Assembly (NCBI GenBank): GCA_964242945.1
Contig: CAXTCF010000004.1
Location: 1,045 to 65,044 of the forward strand
Source: an uncultured Rhizobiaceae bacterium
GTDB taxonomy: Bacteria; Pseudomonadota; Alphaproteobacteria; Rhizobiales; Rhizobiaceae
Direction: 5' to 3'
DNA length: 64,000 nucleotides
In this document: positions 14,032 to 21,082 of the stretch, piece after piece
Position numbering within the stretch: position 1 is the first letter of the stretch
Layout of the letters: each line of letters opens with the position of its first letter
The notes under the pieces: model-generated
Seen by the model: only the letters and a program-made list of their open reading frames with translations
What the model was told of the DNA's origin: nothing
Databases searched by the model: none
Position numbers and translations under genes: made by a program

Positions 14032-14550
14032 CTAAGCCTCGAAGTCCGGATTGTCGCGCACCATCAGCAGGGCATCGCCATAGACCGAGCTGCGCCGGTC
14101 CAACGGGCGGAAGCCGGCCTTCTCATAGGCGCGGATCGCCCTGAGATTGCCTGGGTCCGGGTCGATCACGAGGCGCGGCGCGCCTTCGTCGAAGAGCGTT
14201 TCGGCGAACTGGTCGAGGATCGCCGGACCGTGACCCTTGCCGACGAGTTCCGGCGGCCCGACCGTGAGATCGAGGCCGAGCGTGCCGAAGGGCTGGTCGG
14301 CATAGGGGTGGTCGTCCTCCAGGTGCGGGTCGTAGCTCTGGAGGTAGGCGAGGGGCTTGCCCTTCCACTCGACGATCAGGGGCTCGGTGGATACGCTTTC
14401 CATGCCTTCGCGGATTTCCGCCAGCGAGGCTTCCGCATCCTCTCCCCACCACGCCGCCACATGCGGCTCGCCAAGCCAGCGGCGGAGAAGCGGAAAGTCC
14501 CGCTCCTCCACCGGGCGAAAGACGTAGGCCGGCTCGTCAGGCCGCGGCAT
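14032..14550 (-). CDS. GNAT N-acetyltransferase (AAC(6')/siderophore acetyltransferase-like fold)
   Basis: [31 protein letters not shown]. Confidence 0.88.
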
Positions 14551-15091
14551 CGAGCGTTTCCACCACCACGTTGGCGTTGGTGTAAACGCAGATTTCGCCG
14601 GCGATCTGCATGGCGCGGCGCGCGATCTCCTCGGCGTCCTTGTCCGTGTCGATGAGCGCGCGGGCCGCGGCCAGCGCGTAGTTGCCGCCGGAGCCGATCG
14701 CCATCACGCCGTGCTCCGGCTCCAGCACGTCGCCCGTGCCGGTGAGCGCCAGCGTCACTTGTCTGTCGGCCACCAGCATCATGGCTTCGAGGCGGCGCAG
14801 GTAGCGGTCGGTGCGCCAGTCTTTGGCGAGCTCTACCGCCGCGCGGGTCAGCTGGTCGGGGTACTGCTCCAGCTTGGCTTCCAGCCGCTCCAAGAGCGTG
14901 AAGGCATCCGCGGTGGCGCCGGCGAAGCCCGCGATGACGCGCCCGTCCTTGCCGACGCGGCGCACCTTCTTGGCGTTGCCCTTCATGATGGTCTGGCCGA
15001 GGCTCACCTGCCCGTCGCCGGCGATCACCACCTTGCCGCCCTTGCGCACGGTCACGATGGTCGTGGCGTGCATGGTCAAATTGTCCGACAT
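14537..15091 (-). CDS. hslV: ATP-dependent protease peptidase subunit HslV
   Basis: HATTIV N-terminal Thr, [24 protein letters not shown]. Confidence 0.98.
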
Positions 15092-15163
15092 CTTCTTCTC
15101 TCTCCGATGACGCGCGCTCCCGTTTTTCGAGGCAAGCCGCGCGATACGAGGTTGTTCGGGCTC

Positions 15164-15191
15164 ATGTATGCAGGGGCCGGAGCTTTGCAAA
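15164..15191 (-). promoter_or_regulatory. Candidate RpoH-type promoter for hslV
   Basis: Minus strand TTTGCA-N15-CATACAT; the same -10 word occurs upstream of trxA. Confidence 0.35.
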
Positions 15192-15246
15192 CTGGCCAAG
15201 GGGAGGGCGCCCTGTTAGAAGCCGGCCGACCGTTGATGAAAGGCGT

Positions 15247-15852
15247 TTGAACGACGTGGCGCGCGAGGGAAAGATCAGCCGCAAGACCAACGAGACGGAA
15301 GTGTCCGTTTCCCTGGTCCTTGACGGCACCGGCAGGCACGCCATCGCCACCGGCGTCGGCTTCTTCGACCACATGCTGGAGCAGCTTTCCCGCCATTCGC
15401 TGATCGACATGGCGATCGAGGCCAAGGGCGACCGGCATGTGGACGATCACCACACCGTGGAGGACACGGGCATCGCCATCGGCCAGGCGATCGCGCAGGC
15501 GCTGGCCGACCGGCGCGGCATCCTGCGCTATGCATCCGTCGCTCTGCCGATGGATGAAACTCTGACTGAAGCCGCAATTGATGTTTCCGGCCGCCCCTTC
15601 CTGATCTGGAACGTCGCTTTCACGGCCGAGAAGATCGGCACGTTCGACACGGAGCTGGTGCGCGAGTTCTTCCAGGCCTTGGTGCAGAACGCGCGGGTAA
15701 CGCTTCACGTGAATCACCGCACCGGCGCCAACAGCCACCACATCGCGGAGTCCTGCTTCAAGGCGGTGGCGCGGGTGCTGCGTGCGGCATGCGAGCCGGA
15801 CCCGCGCCGGCCCGACGCCATCCCTTCCACCAAGGGCACTTTGGAGGGTTAA
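15247..15852 (+). CDS. hisB: Imidazoleglycerol-phosphate dehydratase
   Basis: [30 protein letters not shown]. Confidence 0.98.
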
Positions 15853-15856
15853 GCCG

Positions 15857-16318
15857 ATGGCCGTCTATGTCGCGGTCGAGCCGCCCAGCGGGGACGCGGA
15901 AAAAACCGCCTTCGTGCGCGACGGCTTCACCTTCTTCGCGTTCCTCCTGCCCGTCTTCTGGTTTCTCTGTCACCGCATGTGGATCGAGGCGGGGCTCAGC
16001 CTTGCCGTGACGCTTCTTCTGGGTTCGCTGGACGCTTTCGGCGGGCCGGCCATCCCTCTGCTGTCCCTGCTGTTCGCGGTCATCGTCGGACTGGAAGCGC
16101 CGGCCTTGCGCCTTTGGACCCTGCGCCGCCGCGGCTGGACCGAGCGCGGCGCGGTCGAAGCGGACAGCGAGGCGGATGCCGAACTCCGCTATTTCCTGGA
16201 CGCGGAGGAAGTCCGCGAGGAAGAAGCTCCCACGCCCCCTGCCGTCGCAGCGCCCGCCCGCCCTGGGCGCGGCGCCGTTCCGGCATTAGGCTTTCTGGAC
16301 AGCCGCGGCATTGCGTGA
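15857..16318 (+). CDS. DUF2628-family membrane protein
   Basis: FVRDGF.F.AF...W...HR.W motif; usual position between hisB and hisH. Confidence 0.82.
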
Positions 16319-16326
16319 AAAATGCC

Positions 16327-16986
16327 ATGCGTGAAACCGTCGTCCTCATCGACTACGGCTCCGGCAACCTGCGCTCCGCCACCAAGGCTTTTGAGCGTGC
16401 CGCACGCGAAGCCGGGCTCGACACGCGCATCCTGCTGACGGACAAAGCCGAGGAAGTCGCAGCCGCCGACCGCGTCGTGCTGCCGGGCGTCGGCGCCTAT
16501 GCCGACTGCCGCGCCGGCCTGGATGCCGTTCCCGGCATGGTGGAAGCCCTGGAGAAGCGCGTGCGCCAAGGGGGAAAACCGTTTCTCGGCATCTGCGTCG
16601 GCATGCAGCTGATGGCGGAGCGCGGGCTGGAGAAGACGGTCACGCAGGGTCTGGGCTGGATCGGCGGCGATGTGAAGGAAATGCAGCCCGCCGACAACAG
16701 CCTGAAAATCCCGCAGGTCGGCTGGAATACGATTCACGTGAAACCGGCCGGCCATCCGCTGTTTGAAGGCATACAAACAAGCCAAAGCGGGCTGCACGCC
16801 TACTTCGTCCACTCCTATCACCTGGCAGCAACAAACCCGGAAGATGTTCTTGCACAAGCCGACTACGGCGGGCCGGTCACCGCGGCCGTTGCGCGCGACA
16901 ACATGGCCGGCACGCAGTTTCACCCGGAAAAGAGCCAGACGCTGGGCTTGGCGCTGATCGGCAACTTTTTGCGGTGGAAGCCGTGA
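16327..16986 (+). CDS. hisH: Imidazole glycerol phosphate synthase glutaminase subunit
   Basis: [33 protein letters not shown]. Confidence 0.98.
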
Positions 16987-17720
16987 TCCTGTTTCCCGCC
17001 ATCGACCTCAAGAACGGCGCCTGCGTGCGCCTGAAGCTGGGGCTCATGGACAGCGCCACCATCTACAATGCCGACCCGGCGGCACAGGCAAAAGCTTTCG
17101 AGGACCAGGGCTTCTCCCGCTTGCACGTCGTGGACCTCGACGGCGCCTTCGCAGGCGAAAGCCGCAATGGCGCGGCCGTGGAAGCGATCCTGCGCGCCGC
17201 CAAGAACCCGGTGCAGCTCGGCGGCGGCATCCGCAGCCTGGAGCAGATCGAGGCTTGGCTGGACAAAGGCGTGTCGCGCGTGATCCTCGGCACGGCCGCC
17301 GTGCGCGATCCGGATTTGGTGCGCGAAGCCTGCCGTCGCTTCCCCGAAAAGATCGCGGTAGGCATCGACGCGAAAAATGGCCGCGTCGCGGTGGAAGGCT
17401 GGGGCGAGACCTCTAACCTGGAAGCAGTCGAACTCGCCAAAAAGTTTGAGGGCGCGGGCGTTGCCGCCGTCGTCTTCACCGACATCGACCGCGACGGCGT
17501 GCTTTCCGGCATCAACTGGGAGGCGACGATCCGCCTGGCCGATGCCGTGTCCATCCCCGTCATCGCCTCCGGCGGCCTGGCCTCGCTCGCCGACATCCGC
17601 CGCATGACGCAGCCCGACGCGCAGAAGCTGGAAGGCGCGATCTCCGGCCGCGCGCTCTATGACGGACGCATCGACCCGGCGGAAGCGCTGGCGATCCTGC
17701 GCGGTGACGTTCCTGCCTGA
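16983..17720 (+). CDS. hisA: ProFAR isomerase
   Basis: [29 protein letters not shown]; GTGA overlap with hisH. Confidence 0.98.
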
Positions 17721-17740
17721 CCCGTGCTAAGCTGTCAGGC

Positions 17741-18307
17741 ATGAACATCCAGGCGAAATACCCAACCACACCGGATGAATTCCTGCGCTGGAACGAAGGG
17801 CGCGAGGGCAAGCGCGAGTTCGTCAACGGGCGGGTGGTTGAAATGATGATCAACGTGACGCGCAACCACGTCGAGATCGCCGGCAACCTCTACTTCGCGC
17901 TGCGGCGCCAACTCGACCCAAGGCGGTTCAGCATCGGCGCCGCTGATTTCGCTATCAGAAGCCCGAACGGGATCAGGTATCCTGATGTCTTTGTCGATCG
18001 CAAGCAGCCGGAAGGGCGCGGCGGCGACTTGGCAGCCGTCGAGCCCGTCCTGCTGGCCGAGGTCCTGTCGCCTTCCTCGTTCGCACGCGACTTCGTGGAT
18101 AAAGCCGAAGAGTATCGAAGCATAGGCAGCCTGCTCTTCTACCTCATCCTGTCCCACCAGGAGCGGCGCGCATGGCTTTTCAGCCGTGAGGAAGGCCGGT
18201 GGACCGAGCAGCGGGAATTTGTCGAAGACGAAATCATCAACCTGTCCGACCTCCGGGTCGAACTTCCTCTCGCCGAAATCTACGAAGGCGTCGATCTCTC
18301 CCGTTGA
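17741..18307 (+). CDS. Uma2 (DUF820) restriction endonuclease-like protein, copy 1
   Basis: E..NG...M, YPDVFV, LLAEVLSPSS..RD...K...Y pattern. Confidence 0.85.
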   Translation: MNIQAKYPTTPDEFLRWNEGREGKREFVNGRVVEMMINVTRNHVEIAGNLYFALRRQLDPRRFSIGAADFAIRSPNGIRYPDVFVDRKQPEGRGGDLAAVEPVLLAEVLSPSSFARDFVDKAEEYRSIGSLLFYLILSHQERRAWLFSREEGRWTEQREFVEDEIINLSDLRVELPLAEIYEGVDLSR

Positions 18308-18375
18308 TATGCGCACGCAAGGGACTTGCCGCACGAAGCACGAGCCTCGAATTGGGCCACGATAGGCTATCAGGC

Positions 18376-18939
18376 ATGAACATCCAGGCGAAATACCCGA
18401 CCACACCGGACGAATTTCTGCGTTGGAACGAGGGGCGCGAGGGCAAGCGCGAATTCGTTGATGGGCAGGTGGTCGAGATGATGATCAACACGACGCGCAA
18501 CCATTGGCGCGTGATGAACAGACTCACCTTCCAGCTCATCGACCAGCTTGGTCTGGAGCGGTACGACATCGGTTCTTCGGATTTCGGGGTTAGAACCGGC
18601 GACGGCATCCGCTTTCCCGACGTGCTCGTGGAAAACCGCACGGAGGAAGGCAAGTCGTTGGCATCCAAGGGGCCCCTGCTTATCGCGGAAGTGCTTTCGG
18701 CCTCAACGAAGGCGCAGGATTTCGGAGCGAAAGCGAAAGACTATCTCGCCCTGCCAACGCTCCGGCATTACCTCGTGCTCGCCCAGGATGAGGTGCGGGT
18801 ATGGCTCTGGTCACGTTCGCCTGATGGAACATGGATCGGTCCTGAGATGACCGCAGATGGTGAAGCAACGATCCTACTCACAGGGTTCGACGCTGAAATT
18901 GCGATCTCTCCACTATACACCGGCGTGAACCTCTCGTGA
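18376..18939 (+). CDS. Uma2 (DUF820) restriction endonuclease-like protein, copy 2
   Basis: ATG 18376 gives the same first 28 aa as copy 1; [17 protein letters not shown]...K...Y. Stop overlaps the hisF start. Confidence 0.85.
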
Positions 18940-19724
18940 CCCTCAAAGCCCGCGTCATTCCTTGTCTGGACGTGAAAGACGGCCGCGTCGTCAAGGGCAT
19001 CAACTTCGTTGGCCTGATCGACGCCGGCGACCCCGTGGAAGCCGCAGCCGCCTATGACGCCGCGGGTGCGGACGAGCTTTGCTTTCTCGACATCACGGCG
19101 TCCAGCGACAACCGCGAGACGATCTTCGACGTCGTGGCCCGCACCGCCGAAAAATGCTTCATGCCGCTCACCGTCGGCGGCGGCGTGCGCAAGCTCGCCG
19201 ACATCCGCCGGCTGCTGCTGGCCGGCGCCGACAAGGTGTCGATCAACACCGCGGCCGTAAAGGACCCGGATTTCGTCTCCGCCGCGGCGGACAAGTTCGG
19301 CAACCAATGCATCGTCGTGGCGATCGACGCCAAGAAGGTGTCGGGAGAGGGCGAGGCGCCGCGCTGGGAAATCTTCACCCATGGCGGGCGCGAGCGGACC
19401 GGCATCGACGCGGTGGCGTTTGCGCAAGAGATGGCCGAGCGGGGTGCGGGAGAAATCCTGCTGACCTCCATGGACCGCGACGGCACCAAGGCCGGCTACG
19501 ACATCGCGCTCACGCGCGCGGTCGCGGATGCCGTGCGCTGCCCGGTGATCGCGTCAGGCGGCGTCGGCACGCTGGATCACCTGGTGGAAGGCGTGCGCGA
19601 CGGCGGCGCTTGCGCCGTGCTCGCCGCTTCGATCTTCCACTTCGGCACCTATTCGGTGCGCCAGGCCAAGGCGCACATGGCCAAGGCCGGACTGCCGATG
19701 CGGCTCGACCCCGCCGACCTTTGA
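18936..19724 (+). CDS. hisF: Imidazole glycerol phosphate synthase cyclase subunit
   Basis: [38 protein letters not shown]. Confidence 0.98.
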
Positions 19725-19740
19725 TCCCGCGAGTCCAGGC

Positions 19741-20058
19741 GTGACCAGCTTTTCCCTGTCCGATCTTGAAGCCATCGTGCGTGCGCGGGCGGCAGCCGAT
19801 CCGGAAAAATCCTGGACCGCCAAGCTCGTTTCGGCCGGCATCGAGAAGGCGGCCAAGAAGCTCGGCGAGGAAGCGACCGAAACCGTGATCGCGGCGGTAG
19901 CGCAGGACAAGGCCGCGCTGGTGAACGAAAGCGCCGACCTGCTTTACCACTGGCTGGTGGTGCTCCACCTCCGCGGCGTCGCCCTGGACGACGTCATGAC
20001 TGAGCTGGAGCGGCGCACGGGCCAGTCGGGGCTTGCCGAAAAAGCCGGCAGAGGCTAG
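19741..20058 (+). CDS. hisE: Phosphoribosyl-ATP pyrophosphatase
   Basis: [17 protein letters not shown]. Confidence 0.96.
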
Positions 20059-20095
20059 CGCAGAAATCACCACGCGGGGTGGGAACTGCTGAAGA

Positions 20096-21082
20096 ATGAG
20101 CCAAGTCGCGCCTGAGTTTGTTGCGCCGGAGCCGGTTCCAGCCGAGCGCTACTCGCCCTACCGTTTCTTTTCCACCGAGGCCTGGGCGAAATTCCGCGCC
20201 GACACGCCGCTGACGCTTTCCGAAGCGGAGGTGCGCCGCCTCGCTTCGCTGAACGACCCGATCGACGGCGAAGAAGTCCGCCGCATCTACCTTTCGCTGT
20301 CGCGGCTGCTTTCCGCCCATGTGGAATCGAGCCAGCTTCTGTTCCGCCAGCGCCAGAAATTCTTCCAGGCGGAGAACGCGGTGAAGACACCCTTCATCAT
20401 CGGCATGGCGGGCTCGGTGGCGGTCGGAAAATCCACCACCGCGCGCGTGCTGAAGGAACTGCTGGCCCGCTGGCCGTCGAGCCCGAAGGTCGATCTCATC
20501 ACCACCGACGGCTTCCTCCACACCAACGAAACCCTGCTCCGCGAAGACCTGATGGAGCGCAAGGGATTCCCTGAGTCCTACGATGTCGGCGCGCTCCTGC
20601 GCTTCCTTTCCGCGATCAAGTCGGGCCAGCCGCATGTGCGGGCGCCCGTCTATTCCCACCTGACCTATGACGTGATGCCGGGAAAGTTCGTCACCATAGA
20701 CCGGCCGGACATCCTGATCTTCGAGGGGCTCAACGTGCTCCAGCCGCGCGACCTGCCGGAGGACGGCAACTTCGTGCCCTTCGTGTCCGACTTCTTCGAC
20801 TTCTCCATCTATATCGACGCGGACGAGCGATTGCTTCGCCAGTGGTATGTCGAGCGCTTCATGCGCCTGCGCGAAACCGCTTTCCAGGACGAGAAGAGCT
20901 TCTTCCACCGCTTCGCCGTCCTGTCGGACGAGGCGGCGCTGGCGCTGGCGACGAGCATCTGGGAAACCATCAACCTGAAGAACCTGCGCGAGAACATCCT
21001 GCCCACCCGCCCGCGCGCCGACCTCATCCTGCGCAAGGGCGAAGGCCACCACGTAACGGAAGTGGCGCTGCGCAAGCTCTGA
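20096..21082 (+). CDS. coaA: Type I pantothenate kinase
   Basis: [33 protein letters not shown]. Confidence 0.97.

Follow-up and report, generated by a model that had tools for sequence, protein, structure and literature searches.

Uma2 proteins (DUF820, COG4636) form a large, structurally solved family that is still without a known function after twenty years, and the literature we found reports no biochemical data for any member. Feder and Bujnicki (2005; PMC551604) described COG4636 proteins as an N-terminal subdomain joined to a PD-(D/E)xK core whose catalytic Lys has migrated to the next helix. They noted an 'erratic' genomic distribution with no recurrent gene neighbourhood, and called Uma2 a selfish element. 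Makarova, Wolf and Koonin (2009; PMC2701414) later described cyanobacterial 'solo toxin' cassettes of adjacent Uma2 paralogues, and Kopfmann et al. (2016; PMC4963859) reported a DUF820 gene, sll1222, within the hoxEFUYH hydrogenase operon of Synechocystis, for which operon 'stabilisation' was proposed. Here we analyse two Uma2 genes, termed U1 and U2, that lie between hisA and hisF in a 64,000-nucleotide stretch of the genome of an uncultured Rhizobiaceae bacterium (assembly GCA_964242945.1, contig CAXTCF010000004.1, positions 1,045 to 65,044; hereafter the window), together with the his-linked lineage to which they belong. Throughout, 'head' refers to residues 1–43 and 'body' to residues 44 onwards.

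In contrast to the picture drawn for COG4636 as a whole, this sublineage is fixed at one operon junction over at least 25 genera, and combines a near-invariant N-terminal subdomain with exchangeable bodies. The cyanobacterial cassettes resemble the his locus in consisting of adjacent paralogues without a recognisable antitoxin or methylase partner; they are, however, known by adjacency only, with no head/body mosaic, breakpoints or operon embedding reported. The sll1222 gene is likewise embedded between metabolic operon genes, and is transcribed with its operon, but it is a single gene in another operon and phylum, for which no allelic types or array dynamics have been described. In the literature searched we found no description of Uma2 genes in his operons. 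Paralogue cassettes and operon-embedded Uma2 genes are thus already known; what is new is that one chromosomal address holds several alleles of Uma2, with recombination arms that reach into the gene itself.

Deeply diverged allelic classes at one chromosomal locus, with conserved flanks reaching into coding sequence, are familiar from the specificity groups of Staphylococcus agr and the swapped target-recognition domains of type I hsdS. There, exchange occurs by homologous recombination and the distribution of types disagrees with the core phylogeny. The his locus appears alike in all these features. It differs in that several types can coexist in tandem; for agr and hsdS, partners and specificity read-outs are known.

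Our best explanation, to which we give a probability of about 0.72, is that U1 and U2 are intact members of a his-linked Uma2 lineage with a conserved head, old exchangeable bodies and products that are predicted to be solitary nucleases. This lineage comprises chromosomal Uma2/COG4636 PD-(D/E)xK nuclease-like genes that occur solely at the hisA–hisF junction of Mesorhizobium-, Aquibium-, Aurantimonas-, Aureimonas- and Jiella-like bacteria. Arms of homology would be provided by hisA together with the conserved head on one side and by hisF on the other, and via these arms ordinary homologous recombination could exchange body alleles. Arrays gain or lose units by recombination between heads. The genes would be expressed along with the operon, in some cases with translational coupling to hisF, and each of them may have a leaderless-type promoter of its own. 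The proteins would act as solitary nucleases with differing substrate preferences, which would be why several types are maintained, in a role that may be defence-like or toxin-like. The evolutionary part of this mechanism, namely old types, recombination at the head, selection on the bodies and operon embedding, is well supported.

All features of the locus lie on the forward strand. The hisA open reading frame (16974–17720; 78–82% identical to hisA of relatives) forms the left conserved flank and hisF (18936–19724, with a GTG start at 18936) the right one. Between them lie U1 (17741–18307, 188 residues, body type A), with its head at 17741–17869 and its body at 17870–18307, and U2 (18376–18939, 187 residues, body type B), with its head at 18376–18504. 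They are separated by a 68-nucleotide spacer (18308–18375), the last 13 nucleotides of which (18363–18375) repeat the element upstream of U1, and the TGA stop of U2 overlaps the GTG start of hisF as GTGA, an arrangement that would couple hisF translationally to U2. A repeat finder identified a pair of 141-nucleotide direct repeats (17728–17868 and 18363–18503; 89% identity, 635-nucleotide spacing), so the repeat begins 13 nucleotides before each Uma2 ATG. The G+C content is 60.3% in U1 and 57.8% in U2 against 65–68% in the his genes. The low G+C content that the first-pass annotation of this DNA had seen in the 3' part of U2 was confirmed (31 of 60 nucleotides at 18841–18900).

That annotation had also recognised the two Uma2/DUF820 genes between hisA and hisF, and codon comparison bore out its description of an identical head on divergent bodies. 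U1 and U2 agree at every residue from 1 to 28 and at 40 of the first 43; their first 129 nucleotides differ at 15 sites, the seven changes in codons 1–28 all being synonymous and the 43 codons as a whole holding ten synonymous and three replacement codons. From codon 44 on, past His43, identity drops to 56/142 (39%). A two-rate change-point model places the break at nucleotide 129, with a mismatch rate of 0.109 before it and 0.48 after it (likelihood ratio 65). By the Nei–Gojobori method, the head has a synonymous divergence (dS) of 0.60, a non-synonymous divergence (dN) of 0.04 and a dN/dS ratio (omega) of 0.07; the body has a dS of 1.28, a dN of 0.63 and an omega of 0.49. The values for the head indicate that the two heads have long been separate and are held by selection on the peptide, in agreement with the annotation, which had argued for such selection and against a very recent copy.

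Both proteins match the Pfam Uma2 profile PF05685 far above its cut-off of 27 bits (U1, 84 bits, E = 1e-23; U2, 75 bits, E = 7e-21), covering positions 2–165 of 172; NCBIfam holds no model for either. An AlphaFold2 model of U1 (predicted local distance difference test score 91.2) was matched by Foldseek to 6OKH (E = 2e-10, template modelling scores 0.76/0.80), 3OT2 (E = 1e-9), 9Y1L (E = 3e-9) and 1WDJ (E = 3e-8), members of a family in which the domain is the same and tandem paralogues are known too. The model thus has the restriction-endonuclease-like fold with an N-terminal subdomain that is seen in 1WDJ, 3OT2 and 6OKH. The modelled head contains a helix (11–18), two strands (25–28 and 31–34) and the start of a second helix (41–57), a layout that, with the match to the Uma2 structures, identifies it with the 'N-terminal subdomain' of COG4636. 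The first-pass annotation had proposed a constant N-terminal module; in the model the head is instead part of a single Uma2 domain and not an addition to it. The oligomerisation or partner binding that it suggested for the head, and the specificity that it suggested for the bodies, are candidate roles.

U1 and U2 carry the active-site variant with the migrated lysine (P81-D82, E107 within AEVLS, and K121), the catalytic positions being placed by alignment and not by structural superposition. D82, E107 and K121 are invariant in 76 members of the lineage, in which columns 12–37, H43, R79, D117 and Y125 are nearly invariant as well, and variation falls mostly in helix 2, the loop 86–100 and the C-terminal region 150–188. 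Both types are heterogeneous within themselves, so only five positions (46, 63, 80, 116 and 119) discriminate cleanly between A and B, and the comparison pointed to no specificity surface. Elsewhere in the 4.25-Mb genome of the window (G000), eight further Uma2 paralogues were found (contigs C261, C134, C149, C22, C33, C3, C1 and C163; L001–L010), and these have only the generic motif EFL.W...R.EL.DG.V in common.

Among four genomes of the same genus, three have one Uma2 gene between hisA and hisF. A scan of species-representative genomes with the head peptides as probes returned 61 loci, in Mesorhizobium spp., Aquibium, Kumtagia, Neomesorhizobium, Pseudaminobacter, Roseitalea, Oricola, Aurantimonas, Aureimonas, Jiella, Fulvimarina and Antarcticirhabdus. 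In all 61, hisF and hisE follow directly downstream, and hisA lies upstream wherever the flank reaches. One Uma2 copy is present in 47 loci, two in 13 and three in 2 (62 genomes). In a profile search of 401 genomes from the same GTDB family, covering 135 genera, the lineage was present in 45 genomes and 25 genera, with its copies nearly always clustered. When the search was repeated with bodies only (residues 44–188) as a control, approximately the top 72 matches still carried the canonical head, and a looser head appeared only in weaker matches (body identity below about 48%); three relatives with such looser heads lie in unrelated contexts, none of them his-linked. Across the lineage the head is under very strong purifying selection, and its rate of evolution is similar to the slow rates of HisA and HisF.

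The bodies tell a different history from the heads and from the hosts. In the body tree, U1 falls in clade A with the single genes of its own genus, whereas U2 falls in clade B (support 98) with genes from Kumtagia, Oricola, Aquibium and others. The approximately unbiased (AU) test rejects a clade of U1 plus U2 (p = 4.6e-7) and also a genus-level clade with U2 among its members (p = 8e-8). Gene order varies too, being hisA-A-B-hisF in the window and hisA-(arginase-family gene)-B-A-hisF in three relatives (L036, L037 and L048). As judged from these sequences, U1 and U2 carry two old, deeply diverged body types, and U2 is not a diverged copy of U1. Heads, on the other hand, show no such partition: cross-genome A–B pairs have a mean head identity of 82% and a maximum of 98%, and in nucleotide comparisons the U1 head is closest to that of an Aquibium carbonis gene of type B (89.9%, versus 88.4% for U2). 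Head identity is thus not tied to body type, and the 'constant head' is a property of the lineage. The head conservation flagged by the first-pass annotation is therefore real and extends beyond the U1/U2 pair.

Most of the difference between types lies in helix 2, in one loop and in the hairpin at the C terminus, and Asp82, Glu107 and Lys121 are kept in all of them. Within types, body omega in 20 close pairs ranges from 0.05 to 0.7, mostly below 0.4 (pooled 0.23), and head omega is 0.13 when pooled. The low within-type values argue that bodies are maintained by purifying selection and that their diversity is old, and they lend no support to the description of these genes as 'diversifying' cassettes.

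Recombination at the head can be followed directly in relatives. On a host tree built from HisF and HisA, sister hosts often differ in body type, so that the types are interleaved. The loci L038 (type A) and L073 (type c), from sister hosts with flanks 90–98% identical, have no mismatch in Uma2 nucleotides 1–56 and then 36–65% identity through the body, until identity resumes exactly at the hisF ATG of the ATGA overlap. L057 (type c) and L076 (type B) repeat the pattern, with one mismatch in nucleotides 1–68. The left breakpoint of such swaps thus lies inside the head, at nucleotides 57–69, and the right end at the hisF start codon; the host-sister groupings are rejected by the body alignment (AU test, p = 1.4e-9 and 1.4e-4). 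Array contraction is seen in L051, which equals its sister L048 minus exactly one 643-nucleotide repeat unit. The crossover fell within the head, and the surviving gene joins the upstream region and nucleotides 1–108 of the type-B copy to the body of the type-A copy.

Gene conversion has left its mark as well. The tandem genes L048.1 and L048.2 begin with the same 62 nucleotides, and L036 and L037 each have synonymous variants that are common to their own two paralogues and absent from the orthologues. The heads of tandem copies are thus occasionally homogenised by gene conversion. Head and body divergence are also decoupled: between L036.2 and L037.2, head dS is 1.2 and body dS 0.5. The events seen at the locus are accordingly deletions, replacements and conversions. 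The first-pass annotation had anticipated that arrays could grow or swap by recombination at the common head, and relatives do show recombination there (the L048-to-L051 deletion, the swaps at nucleotides 57–69 and the head conversion tracts). The outcomes that would have spoken against its proposal were not found: head and body trees are incongruent, the head is not equally conserved in all Uma2 paralogues, and the hisA–hisF interval is not invariant, holding 0, 1, 2 or 3 copies in relatives. A reverse pattern was observed in a tandem pair of Roseitalea sp. (L059:3001-4133), where the second copy has a GTG start and overlaps the first by 4 nucleotides; here the bodies stem from a recent duplication (dS 0.30, omega 0.69) and the heads are more diverged (dS 0.96, dN 0.24).

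Several observations weigh against the interpretation given above. The clades submitted to the AU test were named after the trees had been seen. At 93%, the head identity of U1 and U2 ranks among the highest 6% of values for cross-genome pairs, although not beyond them, and the two genes share a rare Ala-Lys-Tyr at residues 5–7 and differ at one site in nucleotides 1–30, a weak hint of local conversion in this pair. No match to the lineage was found in phage records, and plasmid records returned only generic Uma2 genes at 34% identity or less, none of the lineage. If ancestral arrays held several types, their differential loss could account for some of the mosaic of hosts and types with no need for horizontal exchange; such loss would still proceed by head-to-head recombination. 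Finally, the only pointer to a defence role is likeness to the candidate system PDC-S03.

That likeness consists of matches to the PADLOC hidden Markov model PDLC04833 (U1, E = 5.7e-19; U2, E = 7.6e-16), which reflect the common Uma2 domain. To our knowledge the PDC-S03 candidate is itself unvalidated. While U1 and U2 match its models, the his locus lies outside any recognisable defence island. Established alternatives for a partnered nuclease also find no counterpart here. The hisA–hisF interval holds only U1 and U2, with no other forward-strand open reading frame of at least 50 codons except out-of-frame overlaps. No small antitoxin gene of the kind expected in a type II toxin–antitoxin system is adjacent within it, and neither the hisB–hisE region of the window nor any of the 61 related loci holds a cognate methyltransferase, as in restriction–modification. 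Nor does the locus resemble a shufflon, since its repeats are direct and not inverted and no recombinase lies in or beside the interval. Given the intact catalytic residues, the purifying selection, the ancient exchanged types and the lack of a partner gene, a solitary nuclease with type-dependent substrate preference is judged the most likely product. A defence-like role for it is a tentative suggestion, somewhat short of an even chance, and a toxin-like, selfish one is more doubtful.

In genomes that never held the cassette, hisA and hisF are joined by an ATGA overlap. Where it is present, the last Uma2 gene overlaps hisF by 4 nucleotides (ATGA or GTGA) in 14 of 59 loci, the window included, and ends within 20 nucleotides of hisF in 12 more. 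Upstream, a short element with the consensus TGCTAGAyTGA occupies positions −15 to −5 before the ATG in 33–36 of 38 first-copy genes. The pattern T[GA]nTA[GA]nnT occurs 6–8 nucleotides before the ATG in 33 of the 38, alike whether the upstream gene is hisA or the arginase-family gene, and has a count of 7 on both strands of the window (128 kb). The window versions are weaker (TGCTAAGCT at 17725–17733, forward strand, before U1, and TAGGCT at 18363–18368 before U2). At many loci the element can be read as a rare-codon tail, G-M-L-D-stop, of an extended hisA, a reading which argues for constraint at the nucleotide level. The element looks like an extended −10 box positioned for a leaderless mRNA, and it supplies stop codons in two frames just before the ATG. 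Copies in Aurantimonadaceae have a GGAGG ribosome-binding site in its place.

The same-genus genome that lacks Uma2 (G001) carries a deletion scar at this junction (L104:1432-1505). It consists of the motif ATGTTAGAATAA, followed by an 18-codon open reading frame, MNVQARYPAEPVARVSPQ, whose TGA overlaps the hisF GTG. On this evidence the body is deleted, with the start, the stop–start junction and the upstream element kept.

These features fit a view in which the Uma2 genes are selfish passengers, either solo-toxin-like or hitch-hiking, that are retained by an essential operon and by coupling to hisF, the diversity of types being neutral history. The literature on Uma2 as a selfish element and likely solo toxin in paralogue cassettes (PMC551604, PMC2701414) and the DUF820 gene inside the Synechocystis hox operon (PMC4963859) point the same way, as do the ATGA/GTGA overlaps, the scar that lost its body and kept its start, motif and overlap, and a G+C content that is lower than in the his genes overall and at third codon positions. 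Against this, the whole proteins and their catalytic residues are under purifying selection across many genera, and a functionless gene should decay, yet only two of about 79 copies are likely pseudogenes (L091:3001-3551 and L096:3001-3557, which appear frameshifted, the tblastn match being split in two). The mechanism overlaps with that of exchangeable nuclease cassettes and differs only in who benefits. We regard the passenger view as a serious minority possibility.

A more far-reaching proposal, and an unlikely one, is that the hisA–hisF junction of these Rhizobiales is a balanced-polymorphism locus for a set of solitary nucleases. Frequency-dependent selection, acting through defence against phages or the exclusion of foreign DNA, would then preserve the ancient types, and the head would serve both as a homology arm needing no dedicated recombinase and as a dock by which all types bind one conserved host partner. 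Since this head is confined to the his-linked lineage, even the HisF/HisH/HisA machinery is a conceivable partner.

Ordinary domain constraint is also improbable as a full account. It would make the N-terminus simply the most constrained part of the protein, with vertical descent, duplication and loss in place of cassette exchange. The looser version of the N-terminal motif in all Uma2 paralogues, the lineage-wide conservation of the head and the purifying selection on bodies speak in its favour. It does not account for sister hosts that carry different body types between flanks more than 90% identical, with sharp intragenic breakpoints, or for the order A-B in the window versus B-A in L036, L037 and L048. 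The chimeric gene in L051 and the mismatches between head and body dS (L036.2 versus L037.2, L059.1 versus L059.2) are likewise against it.

A recent tandem duplication of U1 within this genome as the source of U2, whose body would have diverged fast or whose 5' end would lately have been re-copied from U1 by conversion, so that head identity would signify recency, is largely refuted and very improbable. The 141-nucleotide repeat does take in 13 non-coding nucleotides, the single difference in nucleotides 1–30 and the shared Ala-Lys-Tyr are suggestive, and head conversion occurs in relatives. Set against these are a head dS of 0.60 with ten synonymous differences in 43 codons, a U2 body that groups with type B of other genera to the exclusion of a U1+U2 clade, and a U1 head that is closer to an Aquibium type-B head than to that of U2. 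Least credible of all is that the head is conserved as a DNA signal, be it an antisense gene or, on behalf of hisF, an RNA element or promoter inside the coding sequence, since despite the strongly conserved non-coding motif directly upstream of the ATG and the antisense open reading frames that overlap both heads, synonymous sites in the head are unprotected (dS 0.6–2.1 between orthologues, similar to the body), Rfam gives no match in 14500–20500, and the conserved motif lies outside the coding head.

With exchangeable nuclease-like cassettes as the preferred reading, the locus offers the Uma2 family a fixed and easily found chromosomal address, unlike the cyanobacterial expansions. Its types A, a, B, c and D make up an allelic series that nature has placed between nearly isogenic flanks, and it provides natural nulls in the form of the G001 scar, and natural arrays of one, two and three copies. 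This combination of address, alleles and nulls means that function is testable by simple allele swaps in culturable Mesorhizobium and Aquibium; cultured carriers include Mesorhizobium liriopis RP14, Aquibium carbonis B2.3 and Aurantimonas coralicida DSM 14790. More generally, it would be a clean example of a conserved coding segment that acts as a recombination arm, making an 'alien' gene in an essential operon an exchangeable cassette, and it shows how such a gene gets stitched into the translation of a downstream essential gene.

The hisA–hisF junction hosts other passengers as well. In several Mesorhizobium-like genomes an arginase-family gene (PF00491, 278 residues) lies between hisA and Uma2 (L036:1584-2420, L037:1509-2345, L048:1509-2345 and L051:2152-2988; also L042, L056, L072 and L077), and may encode a formiminoglutamase-type enzyme of histidine use. 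Some genera carry opposite-strand DUF3800 and alpha/beta hydrolase genes, DUF2867 genes or small open reading frames of unknown family (L065:3686-4498(-), L086:3724-4488(-) and L090; L055, L060 and L069:2069-2932(-); L042:3533-4033 and L106). The junction is thus a general insertion hotspot.

Within the window, a scan for promoter and terminator consensus sequences gave nothing beyond chance inside the interval. When the 68-nucleotide spacer was aligned to the upstream regions of all 75 other genes as a possible relic of a donor hisA 3' end, the best scores (18 or below) fell short of the shuffled controls (mean 20.7). The C-terminal tails GVDLSR of U1 and GVNLS of U2, considered as a possible trace of homogenisation, have a weak nucleotide resemblance only. 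Compared with three metagenomic strains 98.5–99% identical to the window, substitutions cluster in hisH (16646–16929), where a compensating +1/−1 indel pair is found at 16695/16698; this cluster may be a recombination tract. All three strains keep both Uma2 copies, and over the 1.2-kb pair each differs from the window by one or two substitutions, at three sites altogether.

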